The position numbers were made by a program, and so were the translations under genes. A stretch of DNA of 64,000 bases from an uncultured bacterium (GTDB lineage: Bacteria; Bacillota_I; Bacilli_A; RFN20; CAG-826). The notes beneath the pieces are model-generated. The model made no database searches. It was not told where the DNA came from and saw only the letters and a list, made by a program, of their open reading frames with translations. Location of the stretch: contig CASGAB010000002.1 in NCBI GenBank assembly GCA_949299395.1, forward strand, positions 23,734 through 87,733. The letters run 5' to 3'. Shown here in pieces: positions 23,724 through 57,441 of the stretch (position 1 is the first letter of the stretch; every line of letters starts with the position of its first letter).

Positions 23724-24209
23724 TTATTTATTTTCTTCTACTTGAGGATTATTTTCTTTTTTATCTTTTAAAACTCTTAATCTAATACAAACAAGTGCTG
23801 AAATAAATGCTATTCCTAAAACAACGTGTCCAATTCCTGCTAAACCTGAAATCATAGCGTCCATTCCATTAGTTAATTCTGTTCCTAATACTTGAAGTGT
23901 TCCTCTTACAAGCATCATAACTCCAGCGATATTTAATCCAACATGATAGCAAATTAATCCATGTTTAAACCCAGTAGCAATTTTATCTTTATTTTCTTTA
24001 TCAAACATTTTAAATTTTGCATCTAAAAGTAAGAAAAGAAGGAAGAAGATTACACCTAAAACTAAATAGTGGGAATGAACAACTCCTAAAGTAGTGTTAT
24101 TAGCAACTGTGTCATATTCCATAAATTTAGTGAATTCACGATAAAATACTCCACTTGCTGCGCCAATACAAGCATAAATTAAAGCTGAATTAATTAAGAA
24201 TTTTTTCAT
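23724..24209 (-). CDS. DUF2871-family membrane protein
   Basis: GAASGVFYREFTK, TTLGVVHSHYLVLG, SGLAGIGH. Confidence 0.75.
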   Translation of the reverse strand: MKKFLINSALIYACIGAASGVFYREFTKFMEYDTVANNTTLGVVHSHYLVLGVIFFLLFLLLDAKFKMFDKENKDKIATGFKHGLICYHVGLNIAGVMMLVRGTLQVLGTELTNGMDAMISGLAGIGHVVLGIAFISALVCIRLRVLKDKKENNPQVEENK

Positions 24210-24291: not shown

Positions 24292-25506
24292 TTAATTATT
24301 TATCTTTTTTAAACCCAAAATTGATAAATAATTAATTAATTCCTTAACGTTTTCGTCATCGCTATAAAAAACCATATGATGATTTCCTAAAGGCTTTGTT
24401 AAGAAATAATTAATATCTTCGATTGAATTTAATCTAATTCGTATCTGAGTTCTACATAAATTGAATTTGTTTAAGTTTTCTTCAATATTGCCTTTAAGTA
24501 AAACATAACTATCAAGTAAAGACGAAATTCTAAAAATATAAATAGTTTTAGAAGTATCAAGTTCGCCTTTAATTCCAATACCAATGTTTGATTCAAAATG
24601 AGTATTAAATTTATAAGAGGTAGTCATTTTTAAAGGAATTGTACAATGAGCTAAAACTAATTCATTATTTTTAAAGTTTAAATAAGATGGATTCGCCATA
24701 AATGATGGTTTATGAAGTATTTTTCTAATTAAAAACATCGAAATTAATGCTCCGATATCACCTTCACATCCACCAATTATCCCTTCATCGTTTAATAAAG
24801 CTAGTGCTAAACACGAAGTGGATTTAACTGTATCTAAAAGATCAAAACATCTAATAGTTAAACCTTTTAACGAATATTTATTTACTAAATTTCTTAGAGC
24901 GAGATAAATGTGATATGCTTTTTTAAGTTCTTCATAATCAAATGTAGCATTAAAAAGTTCTGGAGCTAAGTCCTCATTATGTTTTTTATATTCATCAATC
25001 AATTCTTTAGTGGAGATATTAACTAGTTCAATATTAAATTTATCTTTTAAAATTTTGTTATCAACAGAGCTAGAAGAGATTAACCAATCTGATGGTTTTC
25101 CAATAACTCCTAAATAAGATGGTTTAGTTTCGTTATTACAGATTTCAATAATTCTTTTAGCGATATAATCATTTTCCCCATGTAAAATCTCACCTTTTAG
25201 GCTGTTATTTTGCAAATAAGTAAGAATTTCTAAAGCAGCAGGTAAAGAATTATTGTGTGAATAGGTTAAAAAACGATATGGAGCTTTAAAATATTTAAAG
25301 TTTTTCAAAAATTCGTTTTCACTTCCTCCACTCTCAATCAAGATAAGTGATAAATCTGCATCATTGTAGAATTTAGTTACATCTTCAACATAATTAAACA
25401 CATAATTAGTTAAATCTTTTAAAGATAATAAAAGTTTTTCGCGTTCTGAGCGAATATATTCTTCGTCATGAAGTGAAGATTTTATAGCATATATATTAAT
25501 TTTCAT
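24292..25506 (-). CDS. L-fucose/L-arabinose isomerase-like protein
   Basis: CFDLL, GCEGDIG, AHCTIP, CRTQ, LGNHH C-terminal motifs. Confidence 0.6.
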   Translation of the reverse strand: MKINIYAIKSSLHDEEYIRSEREKLLLSLKDLTNYVFNYVEDVTKFYNDADLSLILIESGGSENEFLKNFKYFKAPYRFLTYSHNNSLPAALEILTYLQNNSLKGEILHGENDYIAKRIIEICNNETKPSYLGVIGKPSDWLISSSSVDNKILKDKFNIELVNISTKELIDEYKKHNEDLAPELFNATFDYEELKKAYHIYLALRNLVNKYSLKGLTIRCFDLLDTVKSTSCLALALLNDEGIIGGCEGDIGALISMFLIRKILHKPSFMANPSYLNFKNNELVLAHCTIPLKMTTSYKFNTHFESNIGIGIKGELDTSKTIYIFRISSLLDSYVLLKGNIEENLNKFNLCRTQIRIRLNSIEDINYFLTKPLGNHHMVFYSDDENVKELINYLSILGLKKINN

Positions 25507-36624: not shown

Positions 36625-38133
36625 ATGAATTATTGTTTATCTGCTAGCGAGATGAAAGAAGTTGATAATTATACGATTGCTAATTTTTCTTCATCTTTAG
36701 ATTTAATGGAAAATGCCGGAAGAAGCATTTATGAATTTTTAATTAAAAACTTTTCAAGAGGTTTTTATTATTTAGTATTAACTGGAAGTGGAAATAATGG
36801 TGGAGATGGCTTTGTTATTGCCCGTTATTTGTTAGAAAATGGATATCAAGTTGACGTTTTTGAAGTAAGCGAAGCAAAATCAAACGATGCTTTATTTAAT
36901 AAAAGAAGATATTTAAAAAATACAGTTAAAGAATTAAATATTAATAGAAATACGATAATTATCGATGCTATTTTTGGTTATGGATTAAATAAGGAAGTAG
37001 AAGAGCCATATCTTTCTATTTTTAAAAAAGTAAATGAAGCTGAAAAATATAAAGTAATTAGTGTTGATATAGCTAGTGGAATCTCTTCATCAAATGGTAA
37101 AAAGATGGGTGCAGCAATAAAAGCTGATATTACTCTTGCTTTAGGTGAATATAAACTTGGTCATTTTTTAAATGATGGAAAAGATTATAATAAGCTTTCT
37201 TTAAGACTTGATATTGGAATAAAACTTAATAAAAGCGATTATATTCGTCGTTTAGATAAAGAAGATTTCAAAGATTTATTTGTTGAAAGAAAAGAAAATT
37301 CAAATAAAGGAACTTATGGAAAAGTTACTCTTTTAGGAGGGATGAAAAATACTCCAGGAGCTTTAATTTTAGCTTATAAAGCTTATTCATCGCTTAGACT
37401 TGGAGTTGGTTATAGTGAACTCGCTTTCCCTTCATCTTTAAAATTTATCTATTCATCTTTAACTCCAGAAATCATTTATCATCCATTAAAAGATAAAAAA
37501 GATGGAACTTTAAAATTTAACAAAAAAGATTTAGAGAGTTTACTTTCTTCAAAAGTAATTACTTTAGGTATGGGAATTGGCGTAAGTAAGGCAATTTATA
37601 AAATAATTAAATATTTATTAGAAAACTATAAAGAAACTTTAATTATCGATGCCGATGGACTTAACACTTTAGCAAAATATGGTGTAGAAGTCTTAAAAAA
37701 TACGAGAAATTGCGATGTTATTTTAACTCCTCACATAAAAGAATTTTCTAGACTTTCATCATTAAGTGTGGATGAAATAAAGAGTAAAAGAATCAAATAT
37801 GTTAAAGAATTTTCCTATAAATATAATATAATCATTGTTTTAAAAGATAATTCGACAATTATTTGCAATAAAAACGATTGCTATATCAACACAAACGGAA
37901 ATAATGGTTTAGCAAAGGGCGGAAGCGGAGATCTTTTAAGTGGATTTATCGCTGGATGTATTTCTTTAAATCAAAATAAAGAAGATTTATTAAGAAAAGT
38001 CGCATTAGGTCCGTATATTTTAGGAAGATGTGCAGATATTTTAAAACTTCATGAAAAAGTAAATGAATATTCAATGATTGCTTCAGATATTGTTGGAGTA
38101 ACTAATAAAGTTATAAATGAAATAATTATTTAG
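36625..38133 (+). CDS. nnr: Bifunctional NAD(P)H-hydrate epimerase/dehydratase
   Basis: LMENAG, GNNGGDG, DAIFG, DIASG, NKGTYG, IDADGL, LTPHIKEF, LAKGGSGD. Confidence 0.93.
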   Translation: MNYCLSASEMKEVDNYTIANFSSSLDLMENAGRSIYEFLIKNFSRGFYYLVLTGSGNNGGDGFVIARYLLENGYQVDVFEVSEAKSNDALFNKRRYLKNTVKELNINRNTIIIDAIFGYGLNKEVEEPYLSIFKKVNEAEKYKVISVDIASGISSSNGKKMGAAIKADITLALGEYKLGHFLNDGKDYNKLSLRLDIGIKLNKSDYIRRLDKEDFKDLFVERKENSNKGTYGKVTLLGGMKNTPGALILAYKAYSSLRLGVGYSELAFPSSLKFIYSSLTPEIIYHPLKDKKDGTLKFNKKDLESLLSSKVITLGMGIGVSKAIYKIIKYLLENYKETLIIDADGLNTLAKYGVEVLKNTRNCDVILTPHIKEFSRLSSLSVDEIKSKRIKYVKEFSYKYNIIIVLKDNSTIICNKNDCYINTNGNNGLAKGGSGDLLSGFIAGCISLNQNKEDLLRKVALGPYILGRCADILKLHEKVNEYSMIASDIVGVTNKVINEIII

Positions 38134-38145
38134 GGGCTAACTTTT

Positions 38146-41100
38146 ATGGAAAAAGAAGAAAAAATAATTAATGAAACAAAAAAAGATAAAGTCGGTTGGA
38201 GAATGCGGCTTATCTTTATTTTAGTTGGCTTCACTGGCCAACTTGCATGGAATGTTGAAAATATGTATCTCAATAAATTCATATTTTCTTTTGGTGCAAC
38301 CAACTATTCTTTAATGATTACAATAACTGTTGCAGTTAGTGCAATTGTTGCGTGTTTATCGACTATTTTTATGGGTGCATTAAGTGATAAAGTTAGAAAA
38401 AGAAAAATGTTTATCGCTTTTGGCTATATTTTATGGGGTCTAGCAACAGCAAGTTTTGGTCTAATCAGTGTTGAAAATGTTCAAATATTATTTCCTACAT
38501 TAACTGCTGCAACTGTTGCATCAATTTTTGTAATTGTTATTGATGCGATTATGACTTTTATAGGAAGTTTAGCTAATGATGCAGCGTTTAATGCTTATGT
38601 TACTGAAAATGTTAGTGATAAAAATAGAGGAAAAGTAGAAGGAGTTCTTTCAATTTTGCCTCTTGTTGCAATCATGGTAATTATTGTTGGGTTAGATAGT
38701 TTAACAACTAATGGCCATTGGGATTTATTTTTCTATATTATTGGTGGAATTGCCTTTATTATCGGTATTATTTCTTTATTTTTAATTCCAAAAGAAACAA
38801 TTAAAGAAACTTTACCTGAAAGAAAATATCTTAGAAGCATTGCTGATGGATTTAGAATCAAAACTGTTAAAGAAAATAAGGGATTATATTTAATTCTTTT
38901 AAGCTATTTAGTTTTTGGCATTGCTACACAAATTTTCTTCCCATATTTAATTATTTATTTCCAATATTCATTAGGATTTGAAGGGTTAGAATTCATGATT
39001 TGTTTAGGGGTTGTCCTTGTTATTGGATCAATTCTTACTGTTTTGGTTTCAATTTTAATGGATAAACTAGGAAGAGATAGGTTATTAATACCAGTCATGA
39101 TAGTTGCAATTATTGGTTTAGTTTTAGTTTATTTTGTTGGTAAAGGTCAATTAATATTTGCAATAATTGCCGGAATTATCATGCTTTTTGGATATATTTG
39201 TGGTGGATCAGTATTAAATGCGATTGTTAGAGCTCATGTTCCAGAAGGGCAAGAAGGAACTTTTATGGGCGTAAGAATGATTTTTGCTGTTACTTTACCA
39301 ATGGTTAGTGGTCCTTATATTGCCCAAGTTATTGTTGATAATTTTGCGACTGAACAATACGAAAATGAATATCATACACTTCAGAATTTACCTCCTGCTT
39401 TAATTTGGATAGTCGCTGCAGCTGTTTTACTTTTAGTATTTATCCCTATTTTCTTCTATTTAAGAAATGAGAAAAAAGAAAGATTAAATAGAGAAAGAAC
39501 TGAATGTGGAAAAACAAATAATGGAATAAGTTATGAAATTAAAGATGAAGATAAAGAAACTCACGATGATTCATACATTCCTTTAAATGAACATCCAAAT
39601 CCTTTAAATAAAAGAAACCATTTTTTAGTTTTAAACGGTTATTGGGATTTTAAAATTGCAAAAGAAGATGTTATTCCGACTGAATTTGATAGAAAGATTT
39701 TAGTTCCTTATGCTCCAGAATCGCCTTTAAGCGAAGTTAACGAAATGATTCTTCCAGATGATATTCTTTATTATCATAAGACTATTTATTTAAGTGAAGA
39801 AATGACGAAAGAACATCTTTTTATCCACTTTTTAGGTGTTGATCAAACTTGTTCATTGTATGTAAACGGAATGTTAATTATGCATAATAATTCCGGATAT
39901 ACTGGATTTTCTTATGATATTAGACCTTTAATTAAAGGGGATAAAAAACTAGAAATATTATTAAAAGTAAGAGATGTTAGTGACACTTCATATTTTTCTA
40001 GAGGAAAACAAACTCTTAATAGAGGTCAAATTCGGTACACAACAACAAGTGGTATTTATCAACCGGTTTATTTGGAAAGTGCTCCAAAAGATTTTATTAA
40101 ATCTTTTAAATTGTTTGCTGATTATAAAACAAGTTCTTTAAAAGGTGTTGTAGAAACTAATATTGATGGAAATATATCGATAACCATCGGAGATAATGTC
40201 TATAATGTTGAAGCAAATAAGGATTTTGATATTAAAATTGATAACCTTCATCCATGGAGCGTTGAAGATCCTTATTTATACGATGTAAAACTTAAATTTA
40301 ATGAAGATGAAGTTTCAACTTATGTTGGATTTAGATTTATTGAAGTTAAAAAGAAAAATAAGAAAAATAGATTATTTTTAAATGATAAAGAAATAATTTT
40401 AAAAGGATTATTAGATCAAGGTTATTATTTCGGAGGAAATTTAACTCCAAAAAAATATAGTGATTATTTTAATGAAATTAAAAAAATCAAAGAACTTGGT
40501 TTTAATACAATTAGAAAACATATTAAAATCGAAATTCCACTTTTTTATTATTATTGCGATAAACTAGGTGTTTTATTAATTCAAGATATCGTAAATGGTG
40601 GAGGAATTTATGATAAATGGACTATTTCTTCACCTTTAGTTTTAGGAAGTCATAAATTAGATATAGATAAAGACTATAAAAAGTTTAAAAGAGAAGATGA
40701 AAAAGGAAGAAAAGAATACGAAGATGTTTTAAATTACACTTTAAATTTATTAAATAATTCTCCTTCTAATATCATCATCACTTTATTTAATGAAGGTTGG
40801 GGTCAATTTGATGCATCTTATTATTATCATTATGTAAAACCAAAAATTGATAATAAGTTAATAGACAGTGCCAGCGGATGGTATGATACCCCAAATAGTG
40901 ATTTTAATTCAAAACACATCTATTTCTTACCTATTAAAAACTATAAACAAAAAGATAATCGAGCATATTTATTAAGTGAATTTGGTGGTTATTCTTTATA
41001 TTTAAAAGATAATTTTTATGGAAGTAAGCCATATGGTTATAAACAATATAAAAATAGTGAAAAATTAACTAAAGGCTATAAAAAGTTAATGAAAAAGCTG

Positions 41101-41262
41101 TATAAACCTCTTAAAAAAGACATGGTTGGTTTTATTTATACTCAAGTTAGCGATGTTGAAGATGAAGTAAATGGTTTATTCACTTTTGATCGTAAAGTTT
41201 TAAAAATAAAAGAAGAAACAATTAAAGAAATTAATAGAAAAATCGATAGTCTTATCGAATAG
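38146..41262 (+). CDS. MFS transporter fused to a GH2 glycoside hydrolase
   Basis: Residues about 1-440: ~12 TM MFS (GALSDKVRKRK, MDKLGRDR). From about 39580: GH2 (LNGYWDF, GLLDQGY, RKHIK, FNEGWGQF acid/base, SEFGG nucleophile). One uninterrupted frame. Confidence 0.85.
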   Translation: MEKEEKIINETKKDKVGWRMRLIFILVGFTGQLAWNVENMYLNKFIFSFGATNYSLMITITVAVSAIVACLSTIFMGALSDKVRKRKMFIAFGYILWGLATASFGLISVENVQILFPTLTAATVASIFVIVIDAIMTFIGSLANDAAFNAYVTENVSDKNRGKVEGVLSILPLVAIMVIIVGLDSLTTNGHWDLFFYIIGGIAFIIGIISLFLIPKETIKETLPERKYLRSIADGFRIKTVKENKGLYLILLSYLVFGIATQIFFPYLIIYFQYSLGFEGLEFMICLGVVLVIGSILTVLVSILMDKLGRDRLLIPVMIVAIIGLVLVYFVGKGQLIFAIIAGIIMLFGYICGGSVLNAIVRAHVPEGQEGTFMGVRMIFAVTLPMVSGPYIAQVIVDNFATEQYENEYHTLQNLPPALIWIVAAAVLLLVFIPIFFYLRNEKKERLNRERTECGKTNNGISYEIKDEDKETHDDSYIPLNEHPNPLNKRNHFLVLNGYWDFKIAKEDVIPTEFDRKILVPYAPESPLSEVNEMILPDDILYYHKTIYLSEEMTKEHLFIHFLGVDQTCSLYVNGMLIMHNNSGYTGFSYDIRPLIKGDKKLEILLKVRDVSDTSYFSRGKQTLNRGQIRYTTTSGIYQPVYLESAPKDFIKSFKLFADYKTSSLKGVVETNIDGNISITIGDNVYNVEANKDFDIKIDNLHPWSVEDPYLYDVKLKFNEDEVSTYVGFRFIEVKKKNKKNRLFLNDKEIILKGLLDQGYYFGGNLTPKKYSDYFNEIKKIKELGFNTIRKHIKIEIPLFYYYCDKLGVLLIQDIVNGGGIYDKWTISSPLVLGSHKLDIDKDYKKFKREDEKGRKEYEDVLNYTLNLLNNSPSNIIITLFNEGWGQFDASYYYHYVKPKIDNKLIDSASGWYDTPNSDFNSKHIYFLPIKNYKQKDNRAYLLSEFGGYSLYLKDNFYGSKPYGYKQYKNSEKLTKGYKKLMKKLYKPLKKDMVGFIYTQVSDVEDEVNGLFTFDRKVLKIKEETIKEINRKIDSLIE

Positions 41263-41342
41263 TCTAATTTTCTTATCTGTAATCTTAAATTATTAGAAAT
41301 AATACATTAAATCACTATTTATTTGTGGTATAATTTTTCTCG

Positions 41343-41454: not shown

Positions 41455-44217
41455 ATGGAAAACAATGAAAACCGTACTGTTGCCTATGAAACATTATCTA
41501 GTAATGATACAGTAACATATCTTTCTAGTGATGTTGAAAAAGGTTTAAGCAGTGAAGAGGCTAAAGCTAGATTAGAGAAGTATGGTCCTAATAAACTAGC
41601 TGAAAAGAAGAAAAAATCTATTTTAATGATTTTCCTTTCTCAACTTGCTGATCCAATGATTTACGTTCTTTTCGCCGCAGTTATCGTTACAATCATCATT
41701 TCAATTATTGATATGATGCAAGGTAAAGAAGGCGATTGGGCTGATGTAATCATTATCTTAGTTGTTGTTTTACTTAACGCAATTATCGGTACAGTTCAAG
41801 AAAAGAAAGCCGAAACTTCATTAGAAGCCTTAAAGAAAATGTCTTCTCCAGAATCGACGGTTCTTAGAGATGGCAAAAGATTTAAAGTTAAGAGTGAAGA
41901 ATTAGTTCCTGGCGATATCGTTATCCTAGAAGAAGGCGATACAATCGGTGCTGATTTAAGACTTATTGAAGCTGTTAACTTAAAAGCAAATGAATCATCA
42001 TTAACTGGAGAATCCGTTCCTGTTGATAAAAAGAGTGATATTGTATTCTCTCAATCAGTCGCATTGGGTGACCAAGTTAATATGGCATTCATGTCTACCC
42101 CTGTTACTTATGGTAGAGGTAAAGGTATTGTTACAAATACCGGTATGAATACCCAAATCGGCAAAATTGCCGGTGCTTTAGATAGTGAAGAAGAAACAGA
42201 AACTCCACTTCAAAAGAAACTTGCTCAATTATCAAAGATTTTAGGTATTTTAACCCTGATCATTATTGTTGTTGTTTTAATTGCAGATATTATTTGGCTC
42301 GCTATTGGTGGTCATATTGATTCTGTTGATGGATGGATGGATGCAATTCTTTCTTCAATTGCTCTTGCAGTTGCTGCTATTCCTGAAGGTTTACCAGCAG
42401 TTGTTACTATTGTTTTAGCAATTGGTGTTAGAAAGATGGTCAAAGTCAATACTATCGTTAGAAAACTTCCTTCTGTTGAAACTTTAGGCGCTGTTAAAGT
42501 TGTTTGTAGTGATAAAACTGGTACATTAACTCAAAACAAGATGACTGTTGTCGAATCTTATTTACCAGGTAAATATTATAAAGAAGAAGAATTTACTTCT
42601 GAAAATAACCCTGCTGAATTAAATCTTTTAGCAAAAGGTATGTCATTATGTTCAAATGCAACAGTTGATGAAGGATTATATGGTGATCCTACTGAAATCG
42701 CTTTAGTTGCATTTGCTAATGTCTTTGATTGGCATAAAAAAGATTTAGAAGCAGCAGAAAAAAGAATTGATGAACTTCCATTTGATAGTGTTAGAAAAAT
42801 GATGTCTACACTTCACGAAAGAGCTGATGGAAGCAAAATCCAATATACAAAAGGTGCTTTAGATTCAATTCTTGCATATACAAAATATATTCAAATTGGA
42901 AATGAAGTAAGAGAAATTACAAAAGAAGATTTAGATGAAATTGAAAAAGCAAATTCATATTTCTCATCAAAAGCATTAAGATCTCTTGCTTTAGCTTATA
43001 AAAATACAAATGAAATTGGTGAAACTGAATTAACATTTGTTGGCTTAGTTGCTATGATTGACCCACCTCGTCCAGAAGCAAAAGGTGCTGTTGCTAACTT
43101 TAAAGGTGCTGGTATTACAACTGTTATGATTACTGGTGACCATAAAGATACAGCATTTGCTATTGCTAAAGACTTAGGTATTGTTCAAAATATCGAACAA
43201 TGTAGAACTGGTAAGGAAATCGATGATTTAAGCGAAGAAGAACTCCAAGAATTAGTTAAAACTGTTAGAGTCTTCGCTCGTGTTTCTCCAGAAAATAAGG
43301 TTAGTATTGTTAAAGCATTTAAAGCTAATGGAAATATCGTTGCTATGACTGGTGATGGTGTTAATGATGCTCCATCTCTTAAAGCTGGGGATATCGGTAT
43401 TGCTATGGGTATTACTGGTACTGACGTTGCTAAATCAGCAGCTGATATGGTTTTAACTGACGATAACTTTGCATCAATTGAAAAAGCAGTTGAAGAAGGC
43501 AGAGGAATCTACTCTAACATTAAAAAGACTGTTGTCTTCTTACTTTCTTGTAATATGGGTGAAGTCTTCTCAATGTTCTTTATGATTTGTTTAGGTTTCC
43601 CTGCACCATTAATTGCTATTCACCTTTTATGGGTTAACTTAATTACTGACTCACTTCCTGCAATTTCATTAGGTATGGATCCAAAAGATCCACTTAACAT
43701 GAAAGATAAACCACGTGATCCAGATGAATCAATCTTTGCTCATGGCGGATACTTTGCTACATTTGGTTATGGTTTAGTCGTTGCTATTATTACAATAGCT
43801 GGCTTTATGTTAACTGCACTCCATTTAAATGATTGGAGTTTAACATATACTGAATTAACTCAACTTAGCGGTGATACCTTACATCAATGTCAAACTGTTG
43901 CGTTTACTGTTTTAGCGGTTTCTCAACTCTTCCATATGTTAGGTATGTCAAATATTAGAAGATCATTCATTCACGTTTTCACAAATAAAAACTGGATGAT
44001 GTTACTTGCTTTTGTTGTAGGTTTAGGTTTACAACTCTTAGTCGTTGAAGTTCCTGTATTTAATAGTGTTTTCTCAACACATAACTTTGATGGATTTGAA
44101 TGGATTATAGTTTGCTGTTTAGCACTCGTTCCATTAATCGTTCACGAAATTTCTGTCTTTATTATGTGGATTGTTAAAAAAGTAAAAAACAATAAAAAAG
44201 AAGAAGTTATTGAATAA
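41455..44217 (+). CDS. P2-type cation-translocating ATPase (probable Mn2+/Ca2+ exporter)
   Basis: TGES, IPEGLP, DKTGTLT, KGA, TGD, GDGVNDAP, NLITD. Confidence 0.93.
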   Translation: MENNENRTVAYETLSSNDTVTYLSSDVEKGLSSEEAKARLEKYGPNKLAEKKKKSILMIFLSQLADPMIYVLFAAVIVTIIISIIDMMQGKEGDWADVIIILVVVLLNAIIGTVQEKKAETSLEALKKMSSPESTVLRDGKRFKVKSEELVPGDIVILEEGDTIGADLRLIEAVNLKANESSLTGESVPVDKKSDIVFSQSVALGDQVNMAFMSTPVTYGRGKGIVTNTGMNTQIGKIAGALDSEEETETPLQKKLAQLSKILGILTLIIIVVVLIADIIWLAIGGHIDSVDGWMDAILSSIALAVAAIPEGLPAVVTIVLAIGVRKMVKVNTIVRKLPSVETLGAVKVVCSDKTGTLTQNKMTVVESYLPGKYYKEEEFTSENNPAELNLLAKGMSLCSNATVDEGLYGDPTEIALVAFANVFDWHKKDLEAAEKRIDELPFDSVRKMMSTLHERADGSKIQYTKGALDSILAYTKYIQIGNEVREITKEDLDEIEKANSYFSSKALRSLALAYKNTNEIGETELTFVGLVAMIDPPRPEAKGAVANFKGAGITTVMITGDHKDTAFAIAKDLGIVQNIEQCRTGKEIDDLSEEELQELVKTVRVFARVSPENKVSIVKAFKANGNIVAMTGDGVNDAPSLKAGDIGIAMGITGTDVAKSAADMVLTDDNFASIEKAVEEGRGIYSNIKKTVVFLLSCNMGEVFSMFFMICLGFPAPLIAIHLLWVNLITDSLPAISLGMDPKDPLNMKDKPRDPDESIFAHGGYFATFGYGLVVAIITIAGFMLTALHLNDWSLTYTELTQLSGDTLHQCQTVAFTVLAVSQLFHMLGMSNIRRSFIHVFTNKNWMMLLAFVVGLGLQLLVVEVPVFNSVFSTHNFDGFEWIIVCCLALVPLIVHEISVFIMWIVKKVKNNKKEEVIE

Positions 44218-48641: not shown

Positions 48642-50108
48642 ATGTTATACTTTTTGTGTATGCAAGAAATTGAAAAAGTAGTCAACGATAAGCAAGAAAA
48701 TAGTGAAATAAAAGAAGATGTTTCTAGTGAAGAAAATAAAGAAAACGTTTCTGAAACTAGCGAAAATAAAAACGAGAAAATAAAAGATGAAGCCGAAGAA
48801 AAAAAGGCTAAAAAGAAAAATAAATGGAAATATTTCGTCTATTTACTCGTTGTTTTAATTATCACTGGATTTGTTTTATGGCTTAACTTAGCTTCGCCAG
48901 TTCAAGGAGAAGAGGGAAAATTAGTTTATGAAATGATTCCTTATTTTATTGGCGAAATGAATTATGGTTTTTTAACTTTATTTTTAGCCGTTGTTTTCTT
49001 TATATTTGTTTTAAATGCATTTATGATGTTTTTATATGCAAGACTTTATCAAAGACATTATAAATATCATCAGTCTTTAGCTGCTCAAGCAATTGATAAT
49101 TTCTATAGTTCAATTACTCCTGGAGCATATGGTGGAGAAATAGCGAAGGTTTATATTTTTAATAAACAAGGCGTTGCTCTTTCTAATGCTGCATCTTTAA
49201 TGGTTATGAATTTTATTGTTTATCAATCTTGTTTAATTTTCATTGGTTTAGTTTCTTTATGTGTGAATTTTACCGCTATTTTAGAAATTCCAGCATTCCC
49301 AATTTCAATTACAATTAATGGTCAACCTTTACCTGATATTCCTTTTTATATCTTCATTATTTTAGGTTTTGTTTTAAATCTTTTAACAATGGGATTTATT
49401 ATTTTGATGTCTTCATCAAGAGCAATTCATAACTTTGTTTTAAATACATTAATGAATTTTTTAGCAAAGTTAAGATTAATTAAAAATGTCGAAGAAAAAA
49501 GAGAATCAGTTAGATTACAAATTGAAAATTATCGAATTGAGTTAAGAAGACTTCGTTCAAATATTCCATTTACTGCAATGATGTTTATTTTAACTTTAGT
49601 TTCAATTGGTGTTTCAAATCTTTATCCTTTATTAAGTGGATTAACTTTAAACGGATTTGAAGGAATGGCTGATGTTAACTATTTTAAAAAAGTAGTTGAT
49701 TGTATTTCTTTTTCAAATTTCCATCAAATGGTTACTGGTTTAATTCCTATTCCTGGAACTGCAGGGATTTCAGAATACGTTTTTGATAGACTTTTTGGTG
49801 CTAATTCTTCATTTTTCTCAGAAAGTTTCTATAATTTAGGGGGTGCTAACCTTGTTTTACTTTTATGGAGAATGGTTACCTTCTATTTACAATTCTTAGT
49901 TTGTGGAATTGTTAGTGCAACTTATAAAACTAGAGGTGTTCCTCTTGAAGATAGACTCGTTCCAGTTCCAAATAGAAAGACTGCTTTAACTCTGCAAATT
50001 GAAACAATTGATGAAAGAAAACTTGATTTAATTGAAACTCAAAAAGAAAGAGAAAATAAGAAAAAGCAAGCATATAGAAAGAAAAAAGATGATCGAATTA
50101 ATAAGTAA
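48642..50108 (+). CDS. Lysylphosphatidylglycerol-synthase TM domain (UPF0104/flippase-like) protein
   Basis: ITPGAYGG, IPIPGTAGISE, LLWRMVTFY; multiple TM helices; acidic N-terminal tail. Confidence 0.8.
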   Translation: MLYFLCMQEIEKVVNDKQENSEIKEDVSSEENKENVSETSENKNEKIKDEAEEKKAKKKNKWKYFVYLLVVLIITGFVLWLNLASPVQGEEGKLVYEMIPYFIGEMNYGFLTLFLAVVFFIFVLNAFMMFLYARLYQRHYKYHQSLAAQAIDNFYSSITPGAYGGEIAKVYIFNKQGVALSNAASLMVMNFIVYQSCLIFIGLVSLCVNFTAILEIPAFPISITINGQPLPDIPFYIFIILGFVLNLLTMGFIILMSSSRAIHNFVLNTLMNFLAKLRLIKNVEEKRESVRLQIENYRIELRRLRSNIPFTAMMFILTLVSIGVSNLYPLLSGLTLNGFEGMADVNYFKKVVDCISFSNFHQMVTGLIPIPGTAGISEYVFDRLFGANSSFFSESFYNLGGANLVLLLWRMVTFYLQFLVCGIVSATYKTRGVPLEDRLVPVPNRKTALTLQIETIDERKLDLIETQKERENKKKQAYRKKKDDRINK

Positions 50109-50114
50109 AAAAAT

Positions 50115-51287
50115 ATGAATATTGCGATATTTTCCGATACATTTTATCCAGAAGTTAATGGAGTTGCTACCTCAGTCAACTCTCTTTTTACTTTATTAAA
50201 TCAACGTGGGCATAACTGTTATGTGATTACAACTACATCTTCAAAATATGTTACGTATAAAGATAAAGTTATTGGAATTCCAGGTATTGAATTAAAACAA
50301 TTATATGGATATAGAGCCGCTTTTATTTATAATAGTGATGCTTTTAAACTTATAAAATCACTTAATCTTGATATTGTTCACGTTAATACTGAATTTGGTA
50401 TTGGACAATTTGGTTTTATTGTTGCTAAAAAGTTAAATATTGCTTCCGTTTATACTTATCATACGATGTATGAAGATTATACATATTACGCAACAAAAGG
50501 TTATTTTGATCGTTTTTCTAAATGGGCAATTAGAGAATTTGCTAGAGCTTGTATGACTAGAGCTAGTGAAATTATTTCCCCAAGTGAAAAAACCGAAGTT
50601 TATCTTAGAAGTATTGGCTTAGAAAAAATGATAAATATCGTTCCTACTGGTTTTGATTTTTCCAAATTCGAAGTTACAAATAAAGAAGAGGTCGAAGAAT
50701 TAAAAATAAAATATGGATTAAATAATTACGATAAAATCCTTCTTTGTTTAGGAAGAATCGCCCAAGAAAAGAGTTTTGATGTTATTATTAATGGATATAA
50801 AGGTTATTTAGATAAATATGGAGATTCTAAATTTAAAACTATTTTAATATTTGTTGGAGCTGGTCCTGATGAACAAGCTTTAATTAAACTAACTAAAGAA
50901 TTAAAAATTGATGATCACGTCATGTTTTTAGGTAAAGTTAATTTAGAAAAAGTTCCTTTATATTATGCGATGGCTGATTTATTTTTAAATGCTTCAATCA
51001 GCGAAACTCAAGGCTTAACATTTATGGAATCAATGGCTGCACATATTCCAATTTTATGCCGTTATGATAACAATTTGGTTGATGTTATCACTAATAAAGT
51101 TACTGGTTTCTTCTTTGAAGATGTTTATGATTTTAAAGATAAACTTGATGAAGTTTTATCAATGAAAAAAGAAGATTTAAATGAAGTAACAATTAAAGCA
51201 TATGACTCAATTGAAAAATTCTCAGATAACACTTTTTATAAAAATATAATGGAGGTATATAAGCGTGCAATTAGGAAAAACTGGTAA
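50115..51287 (+). CDS. GT4 glycosyltransferase, diacylglycerol glucosyltransferase-like
   Basis: FSDTFYPEVNGVATS, HVNTEFG.G, TYHTMYEDY, SETQGLTFMESMA. Confidence 0.85.
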   Translation: MNIAIFSDTFYPEVNGVATSVNSLFTLLNQRGHNCYVITTTSSKYVTYKDKVIGIPGIELKQLYGYRAAFIYNSDAFKLIKSLNLDIVHVNTEFGIGQFGFIVAKKLNIASVYTYHTMYEDYTYYATKGYFDRFSKWAIREFARACMTRASEIISPSEKTEVYLRSIGLEKMINIVPTGFDFSKFEVTNKEEVEELKIKYGLNNYDKILLCLGRIAQEKSFDVIINGYKGYLDKYGDSKFKTILIFVGAGPDEQALIKLTKELKIDDHVMFLGKVNLEKVPLYYAMADLFLNASISETQGLTFMESMAAHIPILCRYDNNLVDVITNKVTGFFFEDVYDFKDKLDEVLSMKKEDLNEVTIKAYDSIEKFSDNTFYKNIMEVYKRAIRKNW

Positions 51288-53661: not shown

Positions 53662-55464
53662 TTATTCAAATAAATCTGGGAATTCACTTTCGAAATATTC
53701 TTTAACATCTTCATCATAGTAATTGATGTTAGATTGTTCAAGATAATATAAAAGTGCGTTATTTGTATAAGTTGTACCGCTAGCAACAGTATAACCGATT
53801 TCTCTAGCATAGTTTTCAACTGATTCTTTTTCTTCAGCAGTAGCATCGCTACTTAAAGCTAAAGTATCTAATGAAACTTGATCAACAATTTCAACGATAT
53901 AATATTTATCTTCATTGTTCCATAAGATGGAATCGACATCACTTGTATAAGTGTTGTTTTTTAAGAAGACTGGGCCACCGACTTGGAATTGTTTAACATA
54001 ATATCCATCGACGGTGTAATTAATATCTGGAGATGTTGCTCTTTCAAATTCAGTAGCAAGACCATATGAGAAAAGGTTAGTAATCATTTCAGTTCCACCT
54101 AAATCAAATGAAGAAGAAGTTCCCCAATCATTTGTTACATATTTAGATGTTGATAAGTTTTCAACTTGAATATCAAATCCTTCTTGTGGTTCATATGGAG
54201 TACCATCAATTGTTGTAAATGATGTATATAATGTTGAATCGTTTGAAGTAGGATTATTTGATAATTCAGAGTAGTTTTTAACGATATCACCATAAAGCGA
54301 TCCATTATAATAAGGTAAATCTTCACCTTTTCTACCATCAATATATGAATAGAATCCACTATTGATTTTTGTTGATTCAGTTCCATAAGTAGCAGTTGCT
54401 AATTCTTTAGCAGCGCTATCTTCTTTTAAGACTTCTGGATCAGCTTCCCAAGCATTGATTAATGTTGAGAAATCAACATCTCTATCTTTAACATTTCTTA
54501 AAGTTGTGTTGATGTAGTTCCTCATTAATGGTTGAGCCATTTTCATTGTTGTATCTGTAACACTAATGAAATTAAGTTTTCTAGCTTGAGTTCTACCAAT
54601 TGATTGATATTGTCTTTCAAAAATATAAGATTCAGTTAATAAATTTGAAAGAATATCTGGGATTAATGCAACGTTAATATAATCAACGTAGTGATAAAGG
54701 TGTAATAATTGAGTTTCACCTTCAATGATAGCTTTATAATCTTTTGCAGGATTATATTCTCTAGTAACTAATTTACCAGTTGTAAAGCCAGCATTTCTAA
54801 TATCAACGTTATCTGGTGCAGCAATTTCATCTTCTGGATTTTTATATGTTGGTTCCATATAAAGAATTTCAGGAGCAACGCTTGTACCATCTTCTGCATA
54901 GACTGTATATAACATTTCATAAACGTGTCTCGCATATAAAGATTCATAGAAGCGGTTATTGTTCATATAAGTAACAACAACAGCTTGATTATATAAAGTT
55001 TTAACAATTTCTTTTTGAACGAGTTCAATATAAGCTTCAAGTCTTGCTTTATAATCGCTTACATTAGCTTCACTTGGTTCTTCTTCATAAGTAACAGATG
55101 TAGAAGTAGATTCCCAGTTCCAATAGAATTTGTGAGCTTTGACAAATTCCATAATGGATGAATTGCTATTTAAATCTAAACCATCGATATAGACTTTACC
55201 GTCTTTATCAACTTTATAATCACCAACATATGCTTTAGCGATTGATTCGCTTAACATATCTTTAATGCTTGAAGCATAGTTATCGCCGTTTTTAATTGAA
55301 TCGAAAATTTGTTTAATTTCGTTATTTTCAACTTCAACAGCAGCGCCATCTTTATTAACAACGATTGGATCGTCTGGATTTTTTAATTCAGCACTAACTT
55401 TAGAACAACCAGTGACTAATAAAGCTGCTGATAAAAGTAATAATGCGGTTTTTGCTTTTTTCAT
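53662..55464 (-). CDS. Large lipoprotein, possibly a highly diverged PrsA/SurA-like foldase
   Basis: Lipobox LLVTGC; no clear catalytic motif; tandem with a parvulin-bearing lipoprotein. Confidence 0.55.
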   Translation of the reverse strand: MKKAKTALLLLSAALLVTGCSKVSAELKNPDDPIVVNKDGAAVEVENNEIKQIFDSIKNGDNYASSIKDMLSESIAKAYVGDYKVDKDGKVYIDGLDLNSNSSIMEFVKAHKFYWNWESTSTSVTYEEEPSEANVSDYKARLEAYIELVQKEIVKTLYNQAVVVTYMNNNRFYESLYARHVYEMLYTVYAEDGTSVAPEILYMEPTYKNPEDEIAAPDNVDIRNAGFTTGKLVTREYNPAKDYKAIIEGETQLLHLYHYVDYINVALIPDILSNLLTESYIFERQYQSIGRTQARKLNFISVTDTTMKMAQPLMRNYINTTLRNVKDRDVDFSTLINAWEADPEVLKEDSAAKELATATYGTESTKINSGFYSYIDGRKGEDLPYYNGSLYGDIVKNYSELSNNPTSNDSTLYTSFTTIDGTPYEPQEGFDIQVENLSTSKYVTNDWGTSSSFDLGGTEMITNLFSYGLATEFERATSPDINYTVDGYYVKQFQVGGPVFLKNNTYTSDVDSILWNNEDKYYIVEIVDQVSLDTLALSSDATAEEKESVENYAREIGYTVASGTTYTNNALLYYLEQSNINYYDEDVKEYFESEFPDLFE

Positions 55465-55479
55465 ATACTTTATTTCCTC

Positions 55480-57441
55480 CTAGTTGTTTCCATTTCCTGG
55501 ATTTGTATTTAATGAAGTGGAGTAGTAACAAAGTTTGCCTTCGCCATAATATTCCATTTCACCAAAGTGAATAGCACAAGTTTCTGGAATTAAACCAATT
55601 TTTCTATTCTTTTCTTGTTCGACTAAGGTTGTGTCATAAGAATTCCAAGCATCGATTAAGCTTTGAGTATTAGTTGATTCAACACTTAACATTTTTTGAG
55701 TGATGTATTGATCAACTTTAGCTTGAATTACATCATCTTGTGCTTTGAAATTACCTTCTGTAACCCATTGGAATAATTGGAAATCTTTTTGTGTACCAGT
55801 GTAAGTTTCATATTTTTCACCAATACCTGTAATTCCTGAATCGCTATTTCCATAGATTCTTTCGTTATATCCTTCAACAGTTGTATTAATTGAATTAACG
55901 TATGTTTGAAGAGGTAAGTTATCTGAACCTTTAGGGAAATCTGGGTTGTAATATTTATTACCGTTAGCATCTTGACCGTTTTGTTCAAGAGGGTTAACCG
56001 GAGCATAATATTCATTTAATTTAACTTCAGCTGTTGCTTGATCTTCTAATGGAGATTTTTCAATAACAACAAAGTGAATTCCAGCATTACCTGTTTCTGA
56101 TCTAGAAACGACAATTGGATTTCCTTTTTCATCACATAAAACAGGATATTCTAAACCTTCAATCTTTTGGAAGTGAGCTGCTTCAGATGAACCTTCTGGC
56201 CAATAAGCTTCAGCTCCGAGTTTATAATTTCCTTCTTCATCTAAGTCGGATTTAACAACTGTTCCAGTATCAGTCATTGTATATTCGTGTTCTGGATCAC
56301 TTGAATCAACTTTTGTATTGACGATGAAGTTGATGTTGTGTGAATTGAAGTATTTATTAAAGATAATATTTCTTGGATAGTAAGATTGATTACCTTCGTT
56401 AACTGTTAAGTCTTGACCAGTTGTAGGATCTTTATAAGAATCAACGTCTTTGTATTCGTTTAATTTTACAACTGCTTCATAAGGAATATATTGTGGACCA
56501 ACAGCTTTTAAGTCTTCTTCAACATCAGTAGGCATATTGAATTTTTCAACGAGGTTTTCAAATTCTTGATTACTTCTTAATTCTTCATTATATAAAGCAT
56601 CGTAAGTATATAAACCAAGTTTAAATTCATTAATGAATGATGTATCTAAATCCATTAAATGTTCGCCGTAATTTTTAGCACTTGCTGAATCATCAGTTAA
56701 TCTTTTTGCGATGTCTGCATAAGTATTTGTGTTTGTATCTGATTTAACTAATGCTTCAAAAAGATTATAAAGCTGTTCAGCGTCTTCACTAGAAATTTGT
56801 CCAGTTGAATAGTTAGCAGCATCAGCATCGACTTGAATAAGAATGTCTCTAACGTGATATGGTAATTTAGTTTTAATATAGCCATTTTCACCATAGACCA
56901 TGTTAAATTCATTAACTTCGTCTTCGCTTGCTTCATCTTTATCTGGATTCCATTGGTTGAATGTATTGTAGAATTCATCACCAACAATTTCTTTCATGGC
57001 TGTAACTTCGCATTGTAAATAATATTGATGTTCTCTATCCTCAACACTCATATCGCCAACAATACCTAAAGTATCTTTTAAATAATCTTCCCATGAAGTA
57101 CCTGCAGTATCTGCAGCATCTTTTGCTTCATCAACTGCTCTATTTGCATCGCTTTGAGCGTCGCTTAATCTATCCTTAAATCTGCCGTTAGTGAAAACTT
57201 CTCTAAGAGCAACCTCATAAATAGCATTGTAATAAGCTTCTGTTGCTGTAGCACCATTATTTGTTAAATAACGATCTAAAACATCTTGAGCGGTGATTTC
57301 TTGTGTAACGGAAGTTCCGTTAGCTGTTTCATAAGTGAAATCGATTACGAAATCTTCTTTTTGGGAAATTCCGCAACCACTTAATGCTATTGTGGAAAAG
57401 GCTGATAAAGCTAAAATCAATGATTTAGTACTTTTTTTCAT
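55480..57441 (-). CDS. Large lipoprotein with interrupted parvulin (PrsA-like PPIase) domain
   Basis: Lipobox LSGC; YHVRDILIQ, YADIAKRLTDDSASAKNYGE, FINEF, AGIHFVVI; near hit and yhaM, like prsA in Firmicutes. Confidence 0.6.
   Translation of the reverse strand: MKKSTKSLILALSAFSTIALSGCGISQKEDFVIDFTYETANGTSVTQEITAQDVLDRYLTNNGATATEAYYNAIYEVALREVFTNGRFKDRLSDAQSDANRAVDEAKDAADTAGTSWEDYLKDTLGIVGDMSVEDREHQYYLQCEVTAMKEIVGDEFYNTFNQWNPDKDEASEDEVNEFNMVYGENGYIKTKLPYHVRDILIQVDADAANYSTGQISSEDAEQLYNLFEALVKSDTNTNTYADIAKRLTDDSASAKNYGEHLMDLDTSFINEFKLGLYTYDALYNEELRSNQEFENLVEKFNMPTDVEEDLKAVGPQYIPYEAVVKLNEYKDVDSYKDPTTGQDLTVNEGNQSYYPRNIIFNKYFNSHNINFIVNTKVDSSDPEHEYTMTDTGTVVKSDLDEEGNYKLGAEAYWPEGSSEAAHFQKIEGLEYPVLCDEKGNPIVVSRSETGNAGIHFVVIEKSPLEDQATAEVKLNEYYAPVNPLEQNGQDANGNKYYNPDFPKGSDNLPLQTYVNSINTTVEGYNERIYGNSDSGITGIGEKYETYTGTQKDFQLFQWVTEGNFKAQDDVIQAKVDQYITQKMLSVESTNTQSLIDAWNSYDTTLVEQEKNRKIGLIPETCAIHFGEMEYYGEGKLCYYSTSLNTNPGNGNN

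Follow-up and report, generated by a model that had tools for sequence, protein, structure and literature searches.

Does a long open reading frame (ORF) of an uncultured bacterium from the lineage Bacilli_A (RFN20, CAG-826) encode a natural protein in which a transporter and a glycosidase are joined in one chain, and if so, which sugar would such a protein handle? The question is raised by a stretch of 64,000 nucleotides, here called the window, that corresponds to positions 23,734 to 87,733 of contig CASGAB010000002.1 (assembly GCA_949299395.1). Its forward strand contains a single ORF (38146..41262) that starts with ATG and encodes 1038 amino acids (aa), comprising a permease of the major facilitator superfamily (MFS), a linker and an enzyme of glycoside hydrolase family 2 (GH2). 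This protein represents the fused state of an undescribed, self-contained cassette for uptake and hydrolysis, probably of galactofuranosides, that is widespread in Firmicutes of the gut and rumen.

A single reading frame for a permease and a glycosidase

The first-pass annotation, which was based on the DNA letters, had proposed a natural MFS-GH2 fusion, and the same architecture was found in other genomes. Among 5.8 billion proteins, at least 120 full-length homologs (994-1063 aa, 97-100% query coverage) were found to carry both MFS and GH2 Pfam domains, with identities ranging from 74% down to 35%; where a public name has been given to them, it is "MFS transporter" only. About 8 full-length clusters at 50% identity, together with fragments that span the junction, were detected among 1.84 billion representatives, and 21 loci in reference genomes encode the fusion as a single ORF. 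Relatives in which the two halves are separate genes with overlapping stop and start codons also exist, and one indel could convert such a pair into a fusion, in which case the single ORF would either have arisen artificially during assembly or sequencing or reflect two genes that were recently joined by a read-through of the pseudogene type. Against this, five contigs that derive from three or more samples encode the identical protein, and the segment 38100-41300 is covered, with neither a difference nor a gap, by contigs (Logan contigs, not raw reads) of two independent runs that have word depths of 226x and 70x; a third run (X3) provided only fragments of a diverged relative that are uninformative for the linker. 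Moreover, fused relatives at 74, 70, 61 and 57% identity share the linker layout, and invariant positions in an alignment of 37 sequences are dense in the MFS and the GH2 half alike. Relatives are thus not always encoded by two genes, neither a stop codon nor a frameshift interrupts the linker, and the possibility of an artefact or pseudogene can in practice be dismissed, its residual probability being negligible. A separate observation concerns an Erysipelotrichaceae locus classed as 'fused' (L021, 524-1802), where the match to the MFS part passes from one reading frame to another near position 775, which indicates a frameshift due either to an assembly error or to decay of the copy.

The linker (RNEKKERLNRERTECGKTNNGISYEIKDEDKETHDDSYIPLN) contains 9 K/R and 11 D/E residues. 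The annotation had remarked that the hydrolase lacks an obvious start codon of its own, and indeed the frame is free of ATG, GTG and TTG codons between aa 430 and 530; M386 is followed by no further Met until M534, which is already situated within the GH2 beta-sandwich. Linker length differs between clades, namely, 16-24 aa in Clostridia and 27-39 aa, with a charged composition, in Bacilli. In both clades the linker includes the N-terminal head that is native to the unfused enzyme: a TPFE/TPWGE motif in Clostridia, which compares with MxTPWGExLD…PLP followed by EYPRPQ in unfused GH2s, and N-x-G-[ILY]-x-[YLF] in Bacilli (NNGISYEI in the window protein), as in the GH2s of the split loci L024 and L086. 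Judging from these motifs, the linker corresponds to the C-terminal tail of the MFS permease joined to the native head of the GH2 enzyme. The idea of a newly evolved linker was rejected, since tail and head account for it.

The permease half matches Pfam MFS_1 (PF07690; aa 47-390, 119.3 bits at a cutoff of 33.4) and MFS_2 (PF13347; aa 171-438, 45.8 bits at a cutoff of 27). Hydropathy, loop charges and the helices of AlphaFold2 (AF2) models agree on 12 transmembrane (TM) helices, numbered TM1 to TM12. All odd, cytoplasmic loops are rich in K/R, the even loops are devoid of them, and the tail that follows TM12 is strongly basic, with 9 K/R in its first 40 residues. This positive-inside pattern, along with the basic tail, places the C terminus of the permease, and hence the GH2 enzyme, in the cytoplasm. 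The unfused enzymes of the same clade agree with this location: 62 of 62 start at Met and have no signal peptide, from which it follows that the whole GH2 clade is predicted to be intracellular and to need an upstream transporter. The cytoplasmic location that had been assumed for the enzyme is therefore supported by loop charges, AF2 helices and the lack of signal peptides in the clade. Two alternatives, namely, one more TM helix (a 13th) and a GH2 located outside the cell, were also considered and are ruled out by the 12 helices, the positive-inside pattern and the absence of signal peptides among the unfused enzymes. Overall, the architecture and topology of the fusion can be stated with high confidence.

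An AF2 model of the MFS half alone shows a canonical MFS protein with 12 long helices and a central cytoplasmic loop at aa 214-244 (predicted local distance difference test, pLDDT, 87.7; predicted template-modelling score, pTM, 0.86). Two 6-helix bundles, a profile score above the curated threshold and motif A (consensus G-x-x-x-D-R/K-x-G-R-R/K), the features by which MFS members are recognized, were all found. The invariant residues of the TM1 signature (GQxAWxxENMYLN) are common to fused and stand-alone partner MFS proteins, making this signature a candidate substrate or H+ site, and the further invariant charged residues D133, D145, E165 and R377 are likewise kept in the stand-alone partners. 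A comparison of the MFS half with PDB sequences gave no meaningful match, and a fold search returned MFS structures only, with MelB in first place (template-modelling score 0.74). The transporter is perhaps distantly similar to the GPH family and MelB, and is presumably H+ coupled; import direction and H+ coupling are what we infer from the GPH/MFS_2 affinity and the intracellular enzyme.

Fused, split and stand-alone forms

The species representatives of GTDB contain 80 loci that were identified in a scan, and together with the window and two metagenomic loci they provide 83 GH2 genes. These comprise 21 fused, 20 split and 42 stand-alone forms, where split denotes a cognate MFS gene that is directly followed by the GH2 gene, and stand-alone the absence of a cognate MFS within 8 kb; there are thus 41 partnered loci. 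Carriers are mostly rumen or gut Firmicutes, and the fused set includes the cultured strain Acetatifactor muris DSM 23669, which renders the system experimentally tractable. Contigs labelled Escherichia coli, Parasutterella and Bacteroides (L048, L045 and L034) carry Clostridia-type stand-alone GH2s of this clade, which probably reflects binning contamination in metagenome-assembled genomes (MAGs) and not the true hosts.

The split GH2 genes have their own Shine-Dalgarno sequence and ATG, mostly overlapping the stop codon of the MFS gene and in several cases in the form of ATGA; these overlaps suggest that the pairs are translationally coupled. One of the split loci, L084 of a related "Bacilli" MAG, is syntenic with the window and contains, in this order, nnr, the MFS gene (451 aa, 56% identical), an overlapping GH2 gene (569-573 aa) and, further downstream, a Ca-ATPase gene. 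The gap of 12 nt that separates nnr from the fusion gene in the window is the same in L084, so that cotranscription of both genes appears likely. The conservation of nnr as a synteny partner is confined to the lineage of the window, and nnr lies outside the functional module. Five stand-alone MFS relatives (43-56% identical) were looked up, and four of them are followed by an overlapping GH2 gene, whereas the remaining one is not. A 472-aa MFS protein of the partner subfamily, 56% identical to the MFS half of the window protein, is encoded at L090/L091 (6001-10414) and is followed by two beta-helix proteins of the Cthe_2159 family instead of a GH2; the permease subfamily is thus not strictly tied to GH2.

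In a neighbour-joining tree of the GH2 parts, for which a numerical warning was issued for a few very distant pairs and the bootstrap values are approximate, the "Bacilli" clade of the window has a support of 100/100, and its fused and split members are interleaved. Within this clade, split L086 pairs with fused L003 (86/100) and fused L002 with split L024 (62/100). A Clostridia clade with 15 fused members and 1 split member is supported at 98/100, and the fused L005 is placed, with weak support, among stand-alone enzymes. Given the interleaved states, the separate clades and the clade-specific linkers, at least three fusion or fission events are required. Fusion is thus a recurrent variant of a two-gene cassette and not a unique invention. 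Clustering of the neighbouring genes at 41 loci revealed no conserved neighbours beyond the MFS-GH2 pair, which is a self-contained cassette located in unrelated, often housekeeping, contexts.

The repeated fusion and the apparent translational coupling argue for selection on a 1:1 stoichiometry or on proximity, and the occurrence of fused and split states in close relatives provides a natural experiment on what covalent coupling contributes, be it stoichiometry, colocalization or channelling. Outside the window, three further GH2s of the clade (P0327, P0339 and P0359) are preceded by N-terminal regions of about 250-370 aa that have no Pfam match, and these proteins may be further uncharacterised fusions.

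The GH2 enzyme and its predicted substrate

The enzyme half was described in the annotation as a complete GH2 with both catalytic Glu motifs, and this description holds: NEGWGQF is located at aa 882-888 and SEFGG at aa 944-948, and the additional motifs LDQG (aa 756-759) and RKHIK (aa 790-794) are present at the places that had been indicated. The three-domain order of GH2 enzymes, the acid/base Glu in an N-E motif and the nucleophile Glu were all identified, and N882-E883 and E945 are invariant. Pfam recognizes Glyco_hydro_2_N at aa 530-647 (51.7 bits at a cutoff of 28) and the Ig-like domain Glyco_hydro_2 at aa 687-730 (35.1 bits at a cutoff of 23). At E <= 0.01 there is no Pfam match for the TIM barrel in the window protein, whereas its homologs do match PF02836. 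Searches with NCBIfam added the GPH symporter model and a large number of GH2 equivalogs, all of them matched only weakly.

The closest solved relative by sequence is 7SF2, which aligns end to end (E = 5.6e-78), followed by the Galf-specific Streptomyces galactofuranosidase ORF1110 (9J6N, E = 5.8e-64; Galf, galactofuranose) and 7XYR (E = 7.6e-43); canonical beta-glucuronidases (GUS) reach only E = 2e-16. The fold points in the same direction, since the full-length AF2 model has a template-modelling score of 0.87 with both 7SF2 and 9J6M. The structures 9J6M and 7XYR represent GH2_18 and GH2_19, respectively, which are the only GH2 subfamilies with furanosidase activities, and fewer than 10% of the GH2_19 members are secreted (PMC12243196). 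This furanosidase group has Thr in place of the stacking Trp at subsite -1 (PMC12243196); the corresponding T999 of the window protein (in YTQ), the equivalence of which to the GUS Trp comes from a manual motif alignment, is conserved in 82 of 83 relatives. The nearest relatives being GH2_18/19 members and not GUS or LacZ, sequence comparison assigns the enzyme to the furanosidase clade, group III, in either of the two subfamilies.

Further information on specificity is provided by the complex of ORF1110 with an inhibitor, in which E464 and E530 form the catalytic pair and K212, Y228, H401, N463, Y551 and E594 act as ligands (PMC11627007). K212, Y228 and E594 hold O6, an atom that is missing from arabinofuranose (Araf) (PMC11627007). 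After confirmation of the numbering offset at all 8 positions of the printed alignment, the ORF1110 residues K212, Y228, H401, N463, E464, E530, Y551 and E594 were found to correspond to K621, Y631, H792, N882, E883, E945, Y965 and E1007 of the window protein, which consequently possesses the complete set that binds O5 and O6 of galactofuranose (Galf), namely, K621, Y631, Y965 and E1007. These residues are conserved in 82-83 of the 83 relatives, whether fused, split or stand-alone, with the exception of Y965 (Tyr in 77 and His in 5 of them); the contacts of the C6 hydroxymethyl group, K621, Y631 and E1007, are invariant (83/83). The enzyme is therefore most likely, as a prediction from sequence, a beta-D-galactofuranosidase (EC 3.2.1.146). 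The tentative link to beta-galactofuranosidases that the annotation had drawn is borne out by the nearest solved relatives in sequence and fold and by the retention of the Galf-binding residues. Most C-terminal MFS fusions that have been described are regulatory, with CBS, cNMP-binding, UspA or IIA domains (PMC10710835), and the GH2 half could by analogy be catalytically idle and have a sensory or regulatory role for the transporter, comparable to that of the IIA domain in LacS. We consider this very improbable, since both catalytic Glu residues and all residues of subsite -1 are invariant in fused, split and stand-alone forms, and the same enzyme occurs as a free cytoplasmic protein in many genomes.

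A link to galactose metabolism emerges from proteins and loci outside the window. The protein P0312 consists of an N-terminal galactokinase, recognized by the GalK signature and both GHMP domains (N and C), and a GH2 of this clade that aligns over its full length (E = 1e-111) and retains all ligand residues, and the same architecture is found in two further clusters, P0388 and P0389, at 80% and 59% identity; the three fusion clusters were drawn from NCBI, ENA and Logan. In addition, in L030 a galK gene directly precedes the MFS-GH2 pair at a distance of 12 nt, and galK is also located in the vicinity of the GH2 gene in L044 (split) and L068 (stand-alone). Because GalK is fused to or encoded beside the same GH2 clade, the released sugar is probably galactose, so that Galf is favoured over arabinose as the predicted substrate. 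The GalK-GH2 fusion, itself undescribed, would couple the release of galactose to its phosphorylation. A GHMP kinase near L089 was considered as another GalK and rejected: it has 284 aa, lies beside ksgA and is more likely IspE. Two unrelated loci, L044 (5894-8011) and L068 (5889-7969), have a 251-aa gene of the Lgt family (prolipoprotein diacylglyceryl transferase) between galK and the (MFS-)GH2; such a gene is unusual company for a sugar cassette and might indicate a connection with glycolipids or lipoproteins.

Taken together, these data are compatible with the following route. Small glycosides or oligosaccharides with a terminal beta-D-galactofuranose would be imported by the permease in a proton-coupled manner; these may stem from fungal, protozoal and bacterial cell-surface glycans or from the head groups of glycolipids. 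The tethered enzyme, a retaining exo-glycosidase, would then cleave off their terminal Galf on the cytoplasmic side of the membrane, and the freed galactose would relax to the pyranose form and enter the Leloir pathway via galactokinase. The fusion would fix a 1:1 stoichiometry and place the enzyme at the exit of the transporter. We regard this chain of steps as the probable reading, with confidence that is moderate and well short of that in the architecture; substrate identity, transport direction, H+ coupling and any hand-off between the domains are what we infer.

Several points weigh against the proposed route. On the side of the transporter, the NCBIfam model TIGR00792 'gph' is matched with 34.9 bits, far under its cutoff of 231, the lead of MelB in the fold search is tiny, as unrelated MFS families score nearly equally, and transport direction and coupling ion are assumptions. 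On the side of the enzyme, the fused or partnered clade has no biochemically characterised member, and the nearest solved protein, 7SF2, is itself uncharacterised. The galactokinase link is limited to 3 of 83 loci and 3 fusion clusters, and no galK was found in the 64-kb window. The locus of the window and most others are situated amid housekeeping genes, with no sugar-catabolic or regulatory neighbours. Finally, GH2_18/19 contain arabinofuranosidases as well as galactofuranosidases, the determinants that separate galactofuranosidases from alpha-L-arabinofuranosidases in these subfamilies have been called unresolved (PMC12243196), and bifunctional Araf/Galf enzymes occur in this group in Streptomyces and Aspergillus.

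The last of these points, along with the abundance of Araf-oligosaccharides in the rumen and gut where most carriers live, could mean that the same architecture and mechanism serve alpha-L-arabinofuranosides, such as oligosaccharides from plant arabinan and arabinoxylan, or both sugars. However, the three contacts of the C6 hydroxymethyl group are invariant, ORF1110 with the same residues has no arabinofuranosidase activity (PMC11627007), and galactokinase instead of arabinose-pathway genes is fused or adjacent. An arabinofuranoside or dual substrate is thus unlikely.

The housekeeping context without regulator or catabolic partners would also suit a module that recycles the cell's own Galf-containing envelope glycoconjugates, such as fragments of glycolipids or teichoic acids, in the way AmpG and NagZ recycle muropeptides, instead of scavenging nutrients. 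The Lgt-like gene at two loci is in line with this possibility, as are a locus flanked by GDPD and nucleotidyl-transferase genes, the presence of AmpG among the MFS fold matches and, 7 kb downstream of the fusion in the window (48642-51287, forward strand), an LPG_synthase_TM-like membrane protein followed by a GT4 enzyme, possibly a pair for membrane glycolipid synthesis or lipid modification. Yet the annotated parts of the window contain no UDP-galactopyranose mutase or Galf-transferase, AmpG matches no better than a generic MFS protein, and the evidence from context is anecdotal, so that we consider recycling improbable. It would alter the source of the substrate and not the mechanism.

Within the preferred route of import followed by Galf cleavage, a stronger form can be envisaged in which permease and GH2 form an obligate unit, the enzyme being docked to the cytoplasmic side of the transporter and taking the glycoside straight from its inward-open state, so that hydrolysis would render uptake effectively irreversible. 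The full-length AF2 model (pLDDT 86.6, pTM 0.69, linker pLDDT 72-87) neither establishes nor excludes a fixed MFS-GH2 interface, its linker and pTM values being suggestive only; substrate channelling would be pure conjecture, and we consider docking doubtful. If it did occur, the protein would be a hydrolytic counterpart of group translocation and the first natural machine made of a secondary transporter and a glycosidase, the repeated fusion and apparent translational coupling would reflect selection for the complex, and fused enzymes would offer a general way to deorphanise transporters. Mammals and higher plants lack Galf, whereas fungi, protozoa and bacteria commonly have it, and an intracellular route of import and subsequent cleavage would be a new piece of Galf turnover in the microbiome. 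Furthermore, public annotation offers no more specific name than "MFS transporter" for this MFS subfamily, and the enzyme fused to it leads to a substrate prediction that can be tested.

Related systems and other features of the window

Transporter-enzyme fusions are a recognised phenomenon, and a permease and a GH2 in one chain follow the LacY/LacZ logic with familiar parts. LacY/LacZ of E. coli, GusB/GusA and MelB/MelA each consist of an MFS/GPH glycoside:H+ symporter and a cytoplasmic glycosidase encoded in one operon. As in LacY/LacZ, an MFS permease would import a glycoside that a cytoplasmic GH2 then cuts, and the split relatives are such an adjacent pair. Unlike LacY/LacZ, the window protein is one polypeptide with the permease first in gene order, its GH2 belongs to the furanosidase clade (group III) instead of the LacZ or GUS clades, and its MFS half forms a distinct subfamily that has no close solved relative by sequence. 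Among enzymes, ORF1110 (Streptomyces sp. JHA19, GH2_18, 9J6M/9J6N) shares the three-domain fold, the catalytic pair, the eight inhibitor contacts and the Thr that replaces the -1 Trp, at only about 27-28% identity. In contrast to the window enzyme, which is intracellular and tethered to the membrane, ORF0643, a close homolog of ORF1110, has a signal peptide, and ORF1110 has an extra C-terminal AbfB/CBM42-like domain. BACCELL_01794 of Bacteroides cellulosilyticus (7SF2), the closest solved relative in both sequence and fold, is a stand-alone, uncharacterised GH2 from Bacteroidota that lacks a transporter domain.

Other systems resemble the fusion in arrangement. LplT-Aas likewise combines an MFS transporter with a cytoplasmic enzyme that consumes its substrate, and the two are encoded by adjacent genes or a fused ORF depending on the bacterium; the separate LplT and Aas proteins form a complex (PMC11416262, PMC8154325). 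However, the substrate of LplT-Aas is a lipid and its enzyme an acyltransferase/acyl-ACP synthetase, with no glycosidase involved. Fusions of the NanM mutarotase to sialic acid transporters (SiaF, NanZ-NanM) in gut Bacteroidota and Verrucomicrobia are another example of an enzyme coupled covalently to a sugar transporter; they are enriched in gut bacteria and arose independently more than once (PMC8461474). In these proteins the enzyme is N-terminal, extracytoplasmic and acts before transport, whereas the GH2 of the window protein is C-terminal, cytoplasmic and would act after it. LacS of Streptococcus thermophilus is a GPH/MFS-type permease with a C-terminal cytoplasmic domain and is encoded beside a GH2 gene, but its fused domain is a regulatory PTS IIA and not a hydrolase.

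Neither a fusion of an MFS protein with a glycosidase nor a galactofuranosidase linked to a transporter came up in literature searches; a survey of C-terminal MFS fusions, reportedly that of Willson et al. from 2019 (Microbiology 165:419), lies outside these searches, and an earlier mention of the bare architecture is possible. The words "fused" and "fusion" are absent from a 2026 review of bacterial glycoside transporters, and "intracellular" and "cytoplasm" from a review of galactofuranosidases. The features of the fusion gene and its upstream neighbour are listed in Table 1.

Table 1. Location of the fusion gene, its parts and the gene upstream (window coordinates)
Feature	Position	Strand	Remarks
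Upstream nnr	36625..38133	+	NAD(P)HX epimerase/dehydratase (YjeF_N + Carb_kinase)
Start context	38132..38145	+	AGGGG, Shine-Dalgarno-like element, 9 nt before ATG; overlaps TAG stop of upstream nnr
Whole fusion ORF	38146..41262	+	MFS permease, linker, predicted GH2 furanosidase; 1038 aa
MFS domain, aa 14-439	38185..39462	+	12 TM helices, both termini inside the cell
TM1 polar signature GFTGQLAWNVENMYLN	38227..38274	+	G28, G31, Q32, A34, W35, E38, N39, Y41 invariant
MFS motif A GALSDKVRKRK, aa 77-87	38374..38406	+	TM2-TM3; G77, D81 invariant
TM12 (PALIWIVAAAVLLLVFIPIFFYL)	39394..39462	+	
Cytoplasmic linker, aa 440-481	39463..39588	+	42 aa, charged; no in-frame start codon
GH2 catalytic module, aa 482-1038	39589..41259	+	Beta-sandwich to ~aa 653, Ig-like to ~aa 755, TIM barrel from ~aa 756
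K621 (in GKQ) and Y631	40003..40038	+	ORF1110 K212, Y228; O3/O6 of Galf
RKHIK, H792	40513..40527	+	ORF1110 H401; O3
NEGWGQF, N882 (O2) and E883 (acid/base)	40789..40809	+	ORF1110 N463/E464
SEFGG, E945 (nucleophile)	40975..40989	+	ORF1110 E530
Y965	41038..41040	+	ORF1110 Y551; ring N/O5
YTQ...DVEDEVNG, T999 and E1007	41137..41175	+	E1007 = ORF1110 E594, bidentate O5/O6 ligand telling Galf from Araf

A scan for promoters and terminators around the gene was uninformative, since the 29 promoter-like sites and the single terminator-like site did not exceed the expected numbers of 33 and 1.1, respectively; no hairpin resembling a terminator was detected 3' of position 41262, and an Rfam scan of the whole window gave no match. 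The 192-nt spacer that follows the fusion gene contains an extended -10-like element, TGGTATAAT (41325-41340, forward strand), which would give the downstream gene for a P-type Ca-ATPase (41455-44217) its own promoter. Elsewhere in the window, a 404-aa ORF on the reverse strand (24292-25506) has a weak match to AraA_central (E = 1.6e-4) as its sole Pfam match, and two adjacent large ORFs of 600 and 653 aa on the same strand (53662-55464 and 55480-57441) have no Pfam match at E <= 1e-3.

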